Below are positions 1 through 4,118 of a DNA stretch of 4,118 bases, piece by piece. The notes below the pieces were generated by a model. That model was given only the letters and a program-made list of their open reading frames with translations. It had not been told where the DNA came from and did not search any database. Numbering within the stretch: position 1 is the stretch's first letter; each line of letters begins with the position of its first letter. Source of the stretch: a virus (taxonomy: Duplodnaviria > Heunggongvirae > Uroviricota > Caudoviricetes); IMG/VR virus record IMGVR_UViG_2534681774_000012, positions 1 to 4,118 of that record; one strand, given 5' to 3'. Both the position numbers and the translations under genes were made by a program.

Positions 1-2
1 TT

Positions 3-215
3 GTGCCTGATTTGATTGACGAACCCATGAATAACACCACGCGTCTGCAATGCATGAGTGCTGCCGTGATTGCGCTGACACGATGGGAACCCCGCATTGC
101 CCTGGATGCCATCGACGTTGTCTGGAAAGCGGGAGGCCGCGCCGGGGTGACACTGTCGGGCACTGTCATGCAGACCATGCAGAATGTTGAGTTAACCATC
201 ACGCTGAGGGAGTAA
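3..215 (+). CDS. W: Baseplate assembly protein W (gp25/GPW family), 3' portion only; the gene begins upstream of the window
   Basis: Open frame runs from the window edge to TAA at 213-215; the GTG at 3-5 is an artefact of the window boundary, not a real start. The C-terminal sequence (...LTRWEPRIALDAIDV...GVTLSGTV...ELTITLRE) resembles the recalled P2 gpW C-terminus, and the gene sits immediately upstream of J as in P2. Confidence 0.8.
   Translation: MPDLIDEPMNNTTRLQCMSAAVIALTRWEPRIALDAIDVVWKAGGRAGVTLSGTVMQTMQNVELTITLRE
206..212 (+). promoter_or_regulatory. Shine-Dalgarno-like element (GAGGGAG) for J, embedded in the 3' end of W
   Basis: GAGGGAG at 206-212, 6 nt upstream of ATG at 219; W stop TAA at 213-215 lies between, consistent with translational coupling. 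Confidence 0.6.
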
Positions 216-218
216 ATC

Positions 219-1115
219 ATGCCCGCCGTTGACCTTTCCCAGTTACCGGAACCCGCCATCATCGCGGAGCCTGACTTTGAAGCAATTCTGGCTGACACAA
301 AAGCCATGATGATTGCGTCCTATCCCGCCGAACAGCGTGAAGCCGTTTCCGCCGCACTGGAGCTGGAATCGGAACCCCTTAACGTTATCGCTCAAACCAT
401 GTCGTTTCGTGAAATGCTGTTACGCCAGCGGGTCAATGAGGGTGCACGCGCCTGCATGTTAAGCCACAGCGCCGGGACAAACCTGGACAACCTCGCAGGC
501 AATATGAACACAAAGCGCCTGGTTATCACTCCGGCAACGGATACCACCGACGCGGTGATGGAGAGCGACACCTCGCTGAGACTGCGGGCGCAACGGGCGT
601 ATGACGGCCTGAGCGTTGCTGGCCCGTCAGGCGCATACGAGTATTTTGCCCGCAGCGCCAGCGGTCTGGTGCGTGATGCGCGGGCTATCAGTCCGTCTCC
701 GGCAAATGTGACGGTTTCCATCCTGTCCACTGAAGGCGACGGCACGGCAACGGAGGCGTTGCTTAATACCGTTCGCGCCGTTCTGAATGCAGAGGATACC
801 CGCCCGGTGGCCGACCGCCTGACCGTACAGAGCGCCAGAATCGTGACATGGCGGCTGAATGCAAAACTGTACTTTTACCCCGGCCCGGAATCCGAACCTA
901 TTCTGGCCGCGGCGGAATCGTCATTCAGGAAGTGGCTGGCTGAACAGGGGCTTATCGGTCAGGACGTGGCGTTGTCAGCCATTGCTGCCGCACTGCATGT
1001 GCACGGTGTGCAACGCGTGGAGATAATCGAACCCACACAAAATATGGCCATCAGCGACATACAGGCGGCGCGCTGTGAGTCATTCACCATCAGCGAAGGT
1101 GGGCGTAATGAGTAA
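219..1115 (+). CDS. J: Baseplate assembly protein J (Baseplate_J family, T4 gp6-like wedge protein)
   Basis: 298-aa ORF with ATG start and an upstream SD; size close to P2 gpJ (about 300 aa). Position between W and I and GC-rich coding composition fit a P2-like baseplate gene. Confidence 0.88.
   Translation: MPAVDLSQLPEPAIIAEPDFEAILADTKAMMIASYPAEQREAVSAALELESEPLNVIAQTMSFREMLLRQRVNEGARACMLSHSAGTNLDNLAGNMNTKRLVITPATDTTDAVMESDTSLRLRAQRAYDGLSVAGPSGAYEYFARSASGLVRDARAISPSPANVTVSILSTEGDGTATEALLNTVRAVLNAEDTRPVADRLTVQSARIVTWRLNAKLYFYPGPESEPILAAAESSFRKWLAEQGLIGQDVALSAIAAALHVHGVQRVEIIEPTQNMAISDIQAARCESFTISEGGRNE
1097..1103 (+). promoter_or_regulatory. Shine-Dalgarno-like element (AAGGTGG) for I, inside the 3' end of J
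   Basis: AAGGTGG at 1097-1103, 4 nt upstream of ATG at 1108. Confidence 0.5.
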
Positions 1116-1638
1116 TTCACTGTTACCGCCATCAGCCAGCAATTTCATGCGTTGTGCCGAAGCTGTCGGAACACGCATTACAGACATCCCGGTAGACCTC
1201 AACACGCTGTGGTCGCCGGACACCTGCCCGGTGCATCTGCTGCCTTATCTCGCCTGGGCATTTTCCGTTGACCGCTGGGATCGCAACTGGCCGGAAGAGA
1301 CAAAGCGACAGGTGATTCGTGATGCATGGCTGATACACCGACACAAGGGAACCATCAGCGCACTGCGCCGGGCCATTGAGCCGCTGGGATATCTCATTCG
1401 TGTGTCTGAGTGGTGGGAGTTCGGCGGGGAACCGGGAACATTTACCGTTGAAGTCGGCACGCTGGACAGTGGCGTGACGGAGGAAATGTATCTGGAAATG
1501 GAGCGGTTGATTGCTGATGCCCGCCCGGTCAGCCGCCACATGACAGGGCTGAATATCATTCAGGAGATCCCGGGAGATATTTTCGCGGCGGCAGCAACTT
1601 ACGACGGTGAAGTCATTACCATTTATCCGGACGATTAA
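1108..1638 (+). CDS. I: Baseplate/tail protein I (P2 gpI-like)
   Basis: In-frame ATG at 1108 gives 176 aa, matching P2 gpI length. Its N-terminus (MSNSLLPP...) and motifs (LWSPDTCP..LLPYLAWAFSVDRWD, YDGEVITIYP) match recalled P2 gpI. The start overlaps the J stop in ATGAGTAA. The ORF track's longer 187-aa version starts at a GTG at 1075 with no SD and is less likely. Confidence 0.87.
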   Translation: MSNSLLPPSASNFMRCAEAVGTRITDIPVDLNTLWSPDTCPVHLLPYLAWAFSVDRWDRNWPEETKRQVIRDAWLIHRHKGTISALRRAIEPLGYLIRVSEWWEFGGEPGTFTVEVGTLDSGVTEEMYLEMERLIADARPVSRHMTGLNIIQEIPGDIFAAAATYDGEVITIYPDD

Positions 1639-1640
1639 GC

Positions 1641-3611
1641 ATGAGTACCACAACACGTAAATTTAAAACCGTTATCACCAATACGGGTGCCAAAAAATTA
1701 GCTCAGGCAGCCGCGCCAGATGGTAAGCCTGTCCGCCTGACTCATATGGCCGTGGGTGACGGCGGCGGCACTTTACCCTCGCCAGACAGTAAGCAGACCC
1801 GTCTGGTGCATGAGGTGTGGCGACACACTGTTAATCGCGTCTTCCTGGACGCAACACATCAGAACCGCATTATTGCGGAGCTGGTTGTTCCTCCAGAAAC
1901 GGGCGGATTCTGGATCCGGGAAATTGGTGTGTTTGATGAGCACGGCGATTTAATCGCAGTAGGCAATACTGCCGAAAGTTACAAGCCAACCGTTGCCGAA
2001 GGGTCAGGACGTGCACAAACATTTCGCACCATTCTGACCGTATCCAGCACTGCCACTATGGCGCTTACCGTGGATAACACCATGGTAATGGCCACAGTGG
2101 ATTACGTGGATGACAAACTGAAAGAGCATGAACAGTCACGACGTCACCCGGACGCCTCGCTGACCGCAAAAGGCTTTGTTCAACTTAGCAGCGCCACTAA
2201 CAGCACATCTGAAACGCTGGCTGCGACGCCAAAAGCTGTTAAGGCGGTAATGGATGAAACGAACAAGAAAGCGCCCTTAAACAGTCCTGCACTGACCGGA
2301 ACGCCAACAACGCCAACTGCGCCAAAAGGGACTAATAATACTCAGATCGCAAGCACGGCTTATGTGATGGCCGCGATTGCCGCACTTGTAGACTCGTCGC
2401 CTGACGCACTGAATACGTTGAACGAGTTAGCGGCGGCGCTGGGAAACGACCCGAATTTTGCGACCACCATGACTAAAGCGCTTGCGGGTAAGCAACCGAA
2501 AGATGCCACCCTGACGGCGCTGGCCGGGCTTGCTACTGCGGCAGACAAGTTTCCGTATTTTACGGGGAATGATGTCGCCAGCCTGGCAACCCTGACAAAA
2601 GTCGGGCGGGATATTCTTGCGAAATCGACCGTTGCCGCTGTTATCGAATACCTCGGTTTACAGGAAACGGTAAATCAGGCTTCTGGCGCATTACAGAAAA
2701 ACCAGAACGGCGCAGATATTCCAGGAAAAGATATCTTCACCAAAAATATTGGTGCCTGCCGCGCATATAGCTCATGGGTGGATATTGGTGGCGATAGTCA
2801 GGTCTGGACAACCGCGCAATTTATTTCGTGGCTGGAGAGTCAGGGAGCATTTAACCATCCTTACTGGATGTGCAAAGGCTCATGGGCTTATGCAAATAAT
2901 AAGGTCATTACAGATACAGGTTGCGGAAATATTTGTCTTGCAGGTGCTGTGGTGGAAGTTATTGGCACTCGCGGCGCAATGACCATACGCGTTACTACGC
3001 CGAGCATGTCCAGCGGTGGCGGAATTACTAACGCTCAATTCACTTATATTAATCATGGTGATGCTTATGCTCCTGGCTGGCGAAGAGACTACAACACGAA
3101 AAACCAGCAGCCTGCATTTGCTTTAGGGCAAACAGGAAGCAGGGTTGCAAATGATAAAGCTGTTGGCTGGAACTGGAATAGCGGCGTTTATGATGCAGAT
3201 ATCAGTGGCGCATCGACATTAATCCTCCACTTCAATATGAATGCGGGGAGTTGCCCTGCTGTACAGTTCCGCGTGAATTATAAGAACGGCGGTATCTTTT
3301 ATCGTTCAGCGCGTGATGGTTATGGCTTTGAAGCTGACTGGTCAGAGTTTTACACCACAACCCGCAAACCCTCTGCGGGGGATGTTGGTGCATATACGCA
3401 GGCAGAATGTAACTCAAGGTTTATTACAGGTATTCGCCTGGGCGGTCTGTCATCTGTTCAGACATGGAATGGTCCCGGCTGGTCTGACAGGTCAGGTTAT
3501 GTCGTTACGGGTTCAGTTAACGGAAACCGTGATGAATTAATTGATACAACTCAGGCAAGGCCAATTCAGTATTGCATTAATGGAAGGTGGTATAACGCGG
3601 GGAGTATTTAA
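1641..3611 (+). CDS. H: Tail fibre protein H (P2 gpH-like); conserved N-terminal shaft/attachment region plus a divergent distal receptor-binding region
   Basis: 656-aa ORF. The N-terminal about 350 aa match recalled P2 gpH motifs (MAVGDGGG, IIAELVVPPETGGFW, AESYKP..AEGSGR, HEQSRRHPDASLTAKGF, QLSSATNSTSETLAATPKAVK, ALVDSSPDALNTLNELAAALG, FPYFTGNDVASLATLT). It is followed directly by a tail-fibre assembly gene. ATG at 1641 lies 2 nt after the I stop. Confidence 0.9.
   Translation: MSTTTRKFKTVITNTGAKKLAQAAAPDGKPVRLTHMAVGDGGGTLPSPDSKQTRLVHEVWRHTVNRVFLDATHQNRIIAELVVPPETGGFWIREIGVFDEHGDLIAVGNTAESYKPTVAEGSGRAQTFRTILTVSSTATMALTVDNTMVMATVDYVDDKLKEHEQSRRHPDASLTAKGFVQLSSATNSTSETLAATPKAVKAVMDETNKKAPLNSPALTGTPTTPTAPKGTNNTQIASTAYVMAAIAALVDSSPDALNTLNELAAALGNDPNFATTMTKALAGKQPKDATLTALAGLATAADKFPYFTGNDVASLATLTKVGRDILAKSTVAAVIEYLGLQETVNQASGALQKNQNGADIPGKDIFTKNIGACRAYSSWVDIGGDSQVWTTAQFISWLESQGAFNHPYWMCKGSWAYANNKVITDTGCGNICLAGAVVEVIGTRGAMTIRVTTPSMSSGGGITNAQFTYINHGDAYAPGWRRDYNTKNQQPAFALGQTGSRVANDKAVGWNWNSGVYDADISGASTLILHFNMNAGSCPAVQFRVNYKNGGIFYRSARDGYGFEADWSEFYTTTRKPSAGDVGAYTQAECNSRFITGIRLGGLSSVQTWNGPGWSDRSGYVVTGSVNGNRDELIDTTQARPIQYCINGRWYNAGSI
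3598..3604 (+). promoter_or_regulatory. Shine-Dalgarno-like element (GGGGGAG) for G, inside the 3' end of H
   Basis: GGGGGAG at 3598-3604, 9 nt upstream of ATG at 3614; H stop TAA at 3609-3611. Confidence 0.6.
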
Positions 3612-3613
3612 TT

Positions 3614-4118
3614 ATGATGCACTTAAAAAACATTACTGCTGGCAACCCTAAAACAAAAGAGCAATACCAGCTAACGAAACAATTTAACATCAAATGGCTT
3701 TATTCAGATGATGGAAAAAACTGGTATGAGGAACAAAAGAACTTTCAGCCTGATACGTTGAAAATGGTCTATGACCGTAACGGCGTTATTATTTGTATTG
3801 AAAAGGATGTTTCAGCAATTAATCCAGAAGGCGCAAGCGTCGTTGAATTACCTGATATTACAGCAAATCGCCGGGCTGATATTTCGGGTAAATGGATGTT
3901 CAAAGATGGCGTAGTGATAAAGCGAACTTATACCGGGGAAGAGCAGAGGCAGCAGGCAGAGAATGAAAAGCAAAGCCTGTTGCAACTTGTCAGGGATAAA
4001 ACCCAGTTATGGGACTCACAGCTACGGCTGGGCATCATTTCCGACGAGAGTAAACAAAAATTAACAGAGTGGATACTCTTTGCGCAGAAAGTCGAATCTA
4101 CAGACACTTCCAGCCTGC
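3614..4118 (+). CDS. G: Tail fibre assembly chaperone G (Tfa family), 5' portion; the ORF runs off the 3' end of the window
   Basis: Open frame from ATG 3614 (tandem ATG at 3617) to the window end with no stop, which is why it is missing from the ORF track. Translation MMHLKNITAGNPKTKEQYQLTKQFNIKWLYSDDGKNWYEE..FQPDT..NPEG.SVVE.PDIT.NRRAD.SGKWMFKDG closely matches the recalled P2 gpG N-terminus. Position immediately after H. Confidence 0.85.
   Translation, partial: MMHLKNITAGNPKTKEQYQLTKQFNIKWLYSDDGKNWYEEQKNFQPDTLKMVYDRNGVIICIEKDVSAINPEGASVVELPDITANRRADISGKWMFKDGVVIKRTYTGEEQRQQAENEKQSLLQLVRDKTQLWDSQLRLGIISDESKQKLTEWILFAQKVESTDTSSL

Follow-up and report, generated by a model that had tools for sequence, protein, structure and literature searches.

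Why does the base composition of a phage genome change abruptly in the middle of a gene? The question is raised by a stretch of viral DNA of 4,118 nucleotides (nt) from the IMG/VR record IMGVR_UViG_2534681774_000012 (positions 1 to 4,118; the whole stretch is called the window below), in which the content of guanine plus cytosine (G+C, or GC) falls partway through the tail-fibre gene H. An initial annotation, made from the sequence alone, had noticed this fall and had read it as the signature of a host-range cassette acquired laterally from a lower-GC donor. We find that the fall is real, and that it very probably marks the left crossover site of an invertible element of the Mu G-segment type, in which two alternative fibre tips, each with an assembly chaperone, would take turns behind one constant fibre stem.

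Judged by its sequence, the window is the tail module, W-J-I-H-G, of an Escherichia coli prophage of P88-like type (Xuanwuvirus, P2 family). It is identical, save for one synonymous base, to the chromosomes of E. coli FDAARGOS_1059 and of O111:H2 strain 12A, and corresponds to positions 20001-24118 of a 44-kb prophage locus in the former (coordinates in this locus carry the prefix L003), where the prophage sits between an integrase gene and raiA. The features on which the argument turns are listed here, with G+C at second codon positions given as GC2 and at synonymous third positions as GC3s; all genes of the window lie on the plus strand (open reading frame (ORF) list, translation).

1641..3611, plus strand: H, whole ORF, tail fibre, unbroken across the crossover site
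1641..2654, plus strand: constant part of H, residues 1-338, with a Phage_tail_fib N-terminal domain and one Phage_fiber_2 repeat (Pfam)
2655..3611, plus strand: variable part of H, residues 339-656, predicted receptor-binding tip of the Mu Sv' (G(-)) type; GC 0.47, GC3s 0.387
3614..4118, plus strand: G, tail-fibre assembly chaperone of the Mu U' type (Caudo_TAP); GC 0.417, GC2 0.32, GC3s 0.415
2641..2674, plus strand: left 34-bp inverted repeat, with its partner outside the window at L003 25560-25593
2653..4118, no strand: left, currently expressed arm of the putative invertible AT-rich segment of ~2.9 kb, which extends to L003 25581
L003 24707-25579, minus strand: silent fibre tip, outside the window
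L003 25648-26235: invertase gene, beyond the right-hand site, 1.5 kb past the window end

G runs past the end of the window, and the complete gene would stop at the position equivalent to 4147.

A composition step inside the tail-fibre gene

Measured in a 200-nt sliding window, G+C lies at 0.55-0.62 over nt 1-1600 and at 0.52-0.57 over nt 1600-2700, then at 0.47-0.51 over nt 2700-3500 and finally at 0.345-0.39 over nt 3500-3900. A maximum-likelihood search for a single change-point placed it at nt 2610-2640, with a log-likelihood ratio of 22.7 (the highest of 300 shuffles reached 7.3) and with G+C of 0.562 on its left side and 0.453 on its right, immediately adjoining a crossover site at 2641-2666 that is described below. 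Base counts split at position 2652 differ accordingly (Fisher p=5.5e-11), and in 100-nt windows G+C passes from 0.58 (2501-2600) to 0.42 (2651-2750).

Codon usage shifts at the same place. Within H, in-frame GC3s is 0.518 over 1641-2654, a part with an overall GC of 0.535, and 0.387 over 2655-3608 (p=0.001); for all genes left of the break it is 0.58, compared with 0.40 to the right (p=2.5e-10), and codons ending in G or C are rarer right of the break in 13 of the 16 amino-acid families. Since GC2 inside H stays flat (0.497 in the proximal part, 0.516 in the distal part) while GC3s falls, the step is one of silent sites and not an effect of amino-acid composition. A second, smaller GC3s step is found at the I/H junction, where W, J and I together have 0.619 and proximal H has 0.518 (p=0.004), and a short AT-rich patch (GC 0.367, window 1610-1700) covers the stop of I and the start of H. 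The upstream genes compared here are as follows (ORF list, RefSeq annotation of L003).

3..215, plus strand: 3' part of W, baseplate, GPW/gp25 family; GC 0.563, GC3s 0.64
219..1115, plus strand: J, baseplate; GC 0.586, GC3s 0.63
1108..1638, plus strand: I, tail gene; GC 0.557, GC3s 0.585

The compositional break between proximal H and distal H plus G, as proposed in the initial annotation, thus stands up to the sliding-window and codon-usage analysis that the annotation had suggested, and it coincides, as was also proposed, with the boundary between conserved and variable protein, at H residue 338/339 (equivalent to Mu S' residue 170/171). Other details need amendment. W, J, I and proximal H, which had been grouped together, are indeed the GC-richer side, but in view of the step at the I/H junction they do not form one homogeneous block. 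The hand count of 22/60 G+C at nt 3614-3673 is exact, that at nt 219-278 is 36/60 where 37/60 had been given, and the A/T runs aaaaaacattac and aaacaaaaga, which had been placed near nt 2700, belong to the start of G, at nt 3625 and 3651.

For the whole 44-kb locus, G+C was read from a composition profile, the formal change-point scan covering the window. The structural genes that flank the segment have a GC of 0.53-0.60, so that the low values are not simply those of the remaining prophage, and between them lies a trough of 0.37-0.49 that runs from L003 22.65 kb to ~25.6 kb, downstream of which GC climbs back slowly through the invertase gene. Further low-GC patches occur in the prophage at L003 1-2.5 kb, 8.5-10 kb and 33.5-36 kb.

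Inverted crossover sites and a Gin-like invertase

The site next to the change-point is a 26-bp crossover site of the gix type (window 2641-2666), which reads TTATCGAATACC-TC-GGTTTACAGGAA. Its central TC, at 2653-2654, falls inside the Leu338 codon of H, and the codons of the site are read in frame as I-E-Y-L-G-L-Q-E. The inverted-repeat pair is 34 nt long and 94% complementary, with arms 2885 nt apart, and the right-hand 26-bp site (L003 25568-25593, minus strand) reads TTATCTAAAACC-TC-GGTTTACAGGAA, such that the two sites share the TC core and an identical inner half-site in inverted orientation. Both ends of the Mu G segment read TTATCCAAAACC-TC-GGTTTACAGGAA, and the annotated 'G-segment boundary' of Mu maps to window ~2653; the right-hand site of phage 520873 also aligns. 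Exactly two gix-type sites occur in the 44-kb locus, with none in shuffles and none expected by chance, and a search across the same 44 kb for additional gix-like sites, as in a multi-state shufflon, found none.

The invertase encoded beyond the right-hand site (WP_000905056.1) is a protein of 195 amino acids (aa) in which Pfam recognizes a Resolvase (E=1e-50) and an HTH_7 domain. Its identity to Mu Gin is 86%, with 119 of the first 120 residues shared, and its N-terminus, MLIGYVRVS, contains the catalytic Ser9; the mechanism of Gin, the role of Ser9 and Fis have been described (PMC3575834). A stretch of 177 nt, made up of the spacer before the invertase gene and the first ~120 nt of that gene, shows few differences from the Mu gin region and overlaps what the P7 annotation gives as the cin enhancer, which makes it a candidate enhancer by sequence similarity. 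By its paired sites and its invertase gene, the locus is very probably a DNA inversion system of the Gin/Hin/Cin/Pin type for tail-fibre genes, and the break in H can be read as the crossover site of a Gin-type programmed inversion system and not as a passive scar, a switch that the initial annotation had overlooked.

Two opposed cassettes in one segment

From the first base of the repeat (2641) onward, the window shows 96% nucleotide identity to the Sv'-U' arm of Mu, which continues through a hairpin terminator just past the window end, and over 2641-4118 it is 95-98% identical to this arm and to part of the P7 C segment. Sv'-U' is the arm expressed in Mu G(-) phage. At the protein level, residues 339-656 of H match residues 171-488 of 'Tail fiber protein S,S'' (PDB 8JU3, E=7e-213), along with a weak Pfam match to gp37_C, and G matches Caudo_TAP (Pfam, E=1e-33) and Mu U (PDB 5YVQ_B, E=3.5e-63).

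The other arm, on the opposite strand and outside the window, is silent; it holds a second Caudo_TAP gene and a fibre C-terminus that lacks both promoter and start. Although this arm is colinear with Mu Sv-U, the tip that it encodes is divergent, with 97% amino-acid identity to residues 380-669 of P2 H and 47% to Mu S. From these identities, H would switch between a Mu-S'-type tip (the state seen in the window) and a P2-H-type tip, and not between two Mu tips. The fibre gene is hence laid out as a constant 5' part outside the segment and two alternative 3' parts inside it, opposed to each other and each accompanied by a chaperone gene; the two chaperone genes converge, and a terminator hairpin (L003 24151-24170) separates them. 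In either orientation, the reading frame stays open through the site. No excess of promoters was seen inside the segment. GC skew across L003 22600-25600 is mirrored about the segment centre at ~24160, being positive in the left arm (+0.09 to +0.18) and negative in the right (-0.09 to -0.17).

Both orientations among E. coli genomes

An inversion at these sites would create a junction whose sequence can be written down in advance. We built this junction in silico by joining window 2353-2654 to the reverse complement of L003 25579-25280, giving 602 nt. Two genomes, one of them E. coli ETEC-2264, carry it at 100.0% identity over its full length, and a further two at 99.8%. At a coverage of at least 80%, the flipped junction was present in 356 complete genomes and the window's own junction in 126. 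In ETEC-2264, the flipped junction is annotated as part of a single 804-aa tail-fibre protein, the repeat pair is again 2885 nt apart, and the interior of 2885 nt is the reverse complement of that in FDAARGOS_1059, with ~25 mismatches that all fall within the first ~660 nt. The two strains carry the same WP_ accessions for V, W, J, I, both chaperones and the invertase. The same prophage therefore exists in both orientations in nature.

Several points weigh against a working switch. Both orientations are known from genomes of different strains, and the two could in principle be ancient states, each fixed in its own strains. The two sites differ at two positions of the outer half-site (TTATCGAATACC and TTATCTAAAACC), a difference that may affect Gin binding, and in SfMu a single change beside the core has been speculated to block inversion (PMC4406740). 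Moreover, the right-hand site, the silent arm and the invertase were read from FDAARGOS_1059, beyond the 4,118-nt window. The near-identity of the flanks nevertheless argues against ancient fixed states, and inversions in P2-like prophages of enteropathogenic E. coli (EPEC) have been found experimentally to phase-vary (PMC4272514).

A model for the switch

Combining these observations, we chart a model in which the G+C step in H is the left edge of a switch. The constant 5' two-thirds of H and the late promoter would lie outside the element, which would hold two back-to-back cassettes, each consisting of an alternative fibre C-terminus and its matching assembly chaperone. The Gin-like serine invertase encoded just beyond the right-hand site would bind the two inverted 26-bp sites, assisted, by analogy with Gin, Hin and Cin, by host Fis on an enhancer that would lie inside the invertase gene, at its 5' end. 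The strands would then be cut at the central TC/GA dinucleotide, turned by 180 degrees and religated, flipping the 2.9-kb segment. In the state of the window, H would be fused in frame to the Mu S'-type tip with the U'-type chaperone next; in the flipped state, it would be fused to the P2-H-type tip with the U-type chaperone next. The composition step, the pair of sites, the invertase gene, the two cassettes, the incongruent relatives and the occurrence of both orientations were observed directly, whereas the catalytic activity of the invertase, its dependence on Fis and the enhancer, the actual host ranges, and the direction and donor of transfer are inferred.

Since the two states would alternate, a lysogen population would be expected to release virions of two host ranges. 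This expectation draws on Mu, in which the host ranges of G(+) and G(-) phage differ and the 34-bp repeats have been described (PMC4406740), and on swaps of the fibre C-terminus in P88, which sets host range (PMC5285337).

The composition of the segment would also find its place in this model. The segment would be AT-rich because its cassette family circulates as a unit among Mu, D108, SfMu, P1, P7, D6 and P2-like phages and keeps its own composition, and such a cassette, set into a P2-like structural module of 0.53-0.60 GC, would stand out as a trough whose edge falls on the shared recombination site.

A joint between unrelated phages

On the two sides of the repeat, the window has different relatives. 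Over window 1-2640, BLAST relatives are confined to Peduoviridae: among phages, the Xuanwuviruses P88, P884B11, 520873 and 503458 come nearest, at 95-96% over nt 1-2679, and P2 and Wphi are 84% identical over 1869-2638, a match that ends three bases short of the repeat. Compared with P2 H by BLASTP, the identity of H is high up to EYLGLQETVN and collapses thereafter. Over window 2675-4118, the matches are to Mu, D108 and SfMu (Muvirus, 94-96%), to P7 and RCS47 (97.7%), D6 (92%) and P1 (89%; these four Punavirus), and to P88 (95.7%). Given these incongruent relatives, the alignments make the 34-bp repeat a joint common to genomes that are otherwise unrelated, and they support the view that distal H plus G, fibre tip and chaperone, constitute a separately evolving, horizontally exchanged host-range cassette.

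Additional mosaic joints are seen in related phages. Inside the Sv' arm, at ~3150-3205, lies one beyond which 520873, 503458, Shae_phiSM and P884B11 match the distal ~900 nt only (91-94%) and are different over the first ~500 nt of the arm; the vB_EcoM-12474 phages share only window ~2694-3397 (85%). Upstream, homology is lost at nt 1551-1573 in PhiR44_2 and 500465-2 and at nt 2245 in Chuche.

The step that the cassette makes depends on its carrier. In Mu, the G segment has a GC of 0.41-0.50 next to baseplate genes of 0.51-0.56; in P2 H, GC drops at an orphan copy of the site, with 0.57 before it and 0.42 after; and in P7, with a local backbone of 0.44-0.50, there is no step. The composition of P7 is compatible with a P1-like compositional home of the cassette (about 47% GC), which is suggestive and not decisive as to donor or direction. 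The lateral exchange of a tip-and-chaperone cassette, as put forward in the initial annotation, is thus borne out by the incongruent relatives, but its "lower-GC donor" is not: the cassette is equally AT-rich in every carrier, and the donor therefore cannot be identified.

Could the step nevertheless be no more than the scar of a static cassette, brought in from a lower-GC donor by a one-off illegitimate or homologous recombination? The incongruent relatives and the GC step are both real and would follow from such an event; P2 provides a fixed case, with the same site sequence and the same kind of step and with neither invertase nor second cassette, and the match between P7 backbone and cassette in GC makes a P1-like origin conceivable. 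A static graft does not, however, account for a prophage that has the full machinery (second site, silent cassette and invertase) and is found in both orientations, and the donor it invokes is unidentifiable in a cassette that is equally AT-rich in Mu, P1/P7 and P2-like phages. We regard it as improbable.

A still weaker case can be made for the absence of any transfer, with AT-richness arising from functional constraint on tips and chaperones, through amino-acid composition, mutability or expression level. The very low GC2 of G (0.32) does indicate that part of the AT-richness of G is a matter of amino-acid composition, and the tail-fibre regions of Mu and P2 are likewise AT-richer than neighbouring genes. 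Within H, however, it is GC3s that drops while GC2 stays flat, and convergence cannot produce a nucleotide identity of 95-98% to unrelated phage families that starts exactly at the repeat, so that we consider constraint as the sole explanation highly improbable. Chance heterogeneity, which the generally patchy GC of the prophage and its other low-GC patches might suggest, and an assembly chimera can be dismissed, given a log-likelihood ratio three times as high as in any shuffle and the recurrence of the same junction in 126 complete E. coli genomes.

Comparison with known systems

The closest counterpart of the proposed inversion system is the G segment of Mu with its invertase Gin (S/U, S'/U', gix). 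Shared with it are the 34-bp inverted repeats, the core of the 26-bp site together with its inner half-site, a segment of ~3 kb, and the gene order of Mu G(-): constant fibre part, Sv', U', inverted U, inverted Sv, invertase. The junction with Mu S' falls at the equivalent residue, 170/171. Unlike in Mu, both the constant part of the fibre and the entire virion module are here of P2 type (Peduoviridae), the left outer half-site is off at two positions (GAAT for CAAA within TTATCNAANACC), the tip in the silent arm is of the P2-H and not the Mu S type, and the C-terminal helix-turn-helix region of the invertase has diverged from that of Gin.

The C segment of P1 and P7, with the invertase Cin, follows the same principle, and the closest DNA match that we found to the distal part of the window lies there, with window 2688-4118 being 97.6% identical to part of P7 Sv plus Ua/Ub. 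P7 differs in that the homologous stretch starts ~640 nt inside its C segment, in that the cix sites are other sequences, and in that the C segment measures ~4 kb and has its chaperone gene split into Ua and Ub.

In P2 (NC_001895.1), the H/G pair shares the constant H type, with 84% DNA identity over 1869-2638, as well as an H tip with 97% identity to the tip in the silent arm here, and its H contains an orphan 34-bp repeat of the gix type, TTATCGAATATCTCGGTTTACAGGAAACGGTAAA, at L007 ~2356-2389. By contrast, P2 lacks an invertase, a second site and any alternative cassette. P2 looks like a frozen single-state descendant of such a switch, or like its precursor. Haggard-Ljungquist et al. reportedly found in 1992 that tail-fibre genes have been transferred horizontally among unrelated phages.

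P88 has the same architecture as this prophage, namely H, chaperone, inverted chaperone, inverted fibre fragment and DNA invertase, and is 95-96% identical over window 1-2679 and 2675-4118; its record is in the opposite orientation. The P88 match ending at nt 2679 could have meant that in P88 the site is followed by a different cassette, a possibility that we rejected: the cassette is the same, and the record is flipped. The P2-like prophages of EPEC E2348/69 carry invertible loci of a like kind, for which phase variation has been measured (PMC4272514).

The H shaft also varies among relatives. In the window it contains one 44-aa Phage_fiber_2 repeat (~2157-2279, residues 173-213) and is shorter than in P88, and P2 H has two such repeats. 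Over the shaft interval, related prophages of E. coli differ in span by about +132, +263, +392 and +530 nt, which suggests that the copy number of a 132-nt repeat, and hence the length of the fibre, varies among them.

Other features of the prophage

The single base at which the window departs from the two chromosomes is position 2723, where the window has A (CCA) and both chromosomes have G (CCG), either codon encoding proline; Mu has A, as does the window. Near the right end of the prophage (L003 33606-35319 region) lies a Hok/Gef toxin gene, along with genes for a Com-like regulator and a DNA methyltransferase that resemble the com/mom pair of Mu, another Mu-like module in a P2-like genome.

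Discussion

In three phage lineages that are unrelated, breakpoints of homology gather at the edges of one 34-bp repeat: Mu homology starts at 2641, and the cassette-free homology of P2 and the Xuanwuviruses ends at 2638-2640 or at 2679. From this clustering, together with the orphan site in P2, the site could be a routine exchange route for receptor-binding modules. We tentatively raise the possibility, doubtful as it is, that the gix-type site may also carry the exchange of cassettes among co-resident Mu-like, P1-like and P2-like prophages, by invertase-mediated intermolecular recombination or by recombination within the short repeat that they share. The idea of exchange via the site is old and implies no new kind of element. 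Less likely still, the lysogen may exploit the switch for its own benefit, by analogy with the inversion by PinQ and PinR that blocks adsorption of T2 (PMC12529663).

The proposed switch is textbook biology, already known, in a type of prophage that had previously been sequenced and annotated, and it is conceptually nothing new. Descriptions dating from the 1980s-1990s onward cover fibre segments that invert (Mu G, P1 C, e14 P and p15B Min), their occurrence in P2-like prophages, and the horizontal transfer of fibre tips between P2, Mu and P1.

For annotation, the use of these results is that a change of GC within the H gene, in a member of the P2 family, signals where an invertible host-range switch has its crossover site. 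The 'tail fibre' called in such a prophage is then one of two expressed states, with the Mu-S'-type tip shown here and the P2-H-type tip hidden, and this bears on the prediction of host range from prophages and on such fibres in engineered phages or tailocins.

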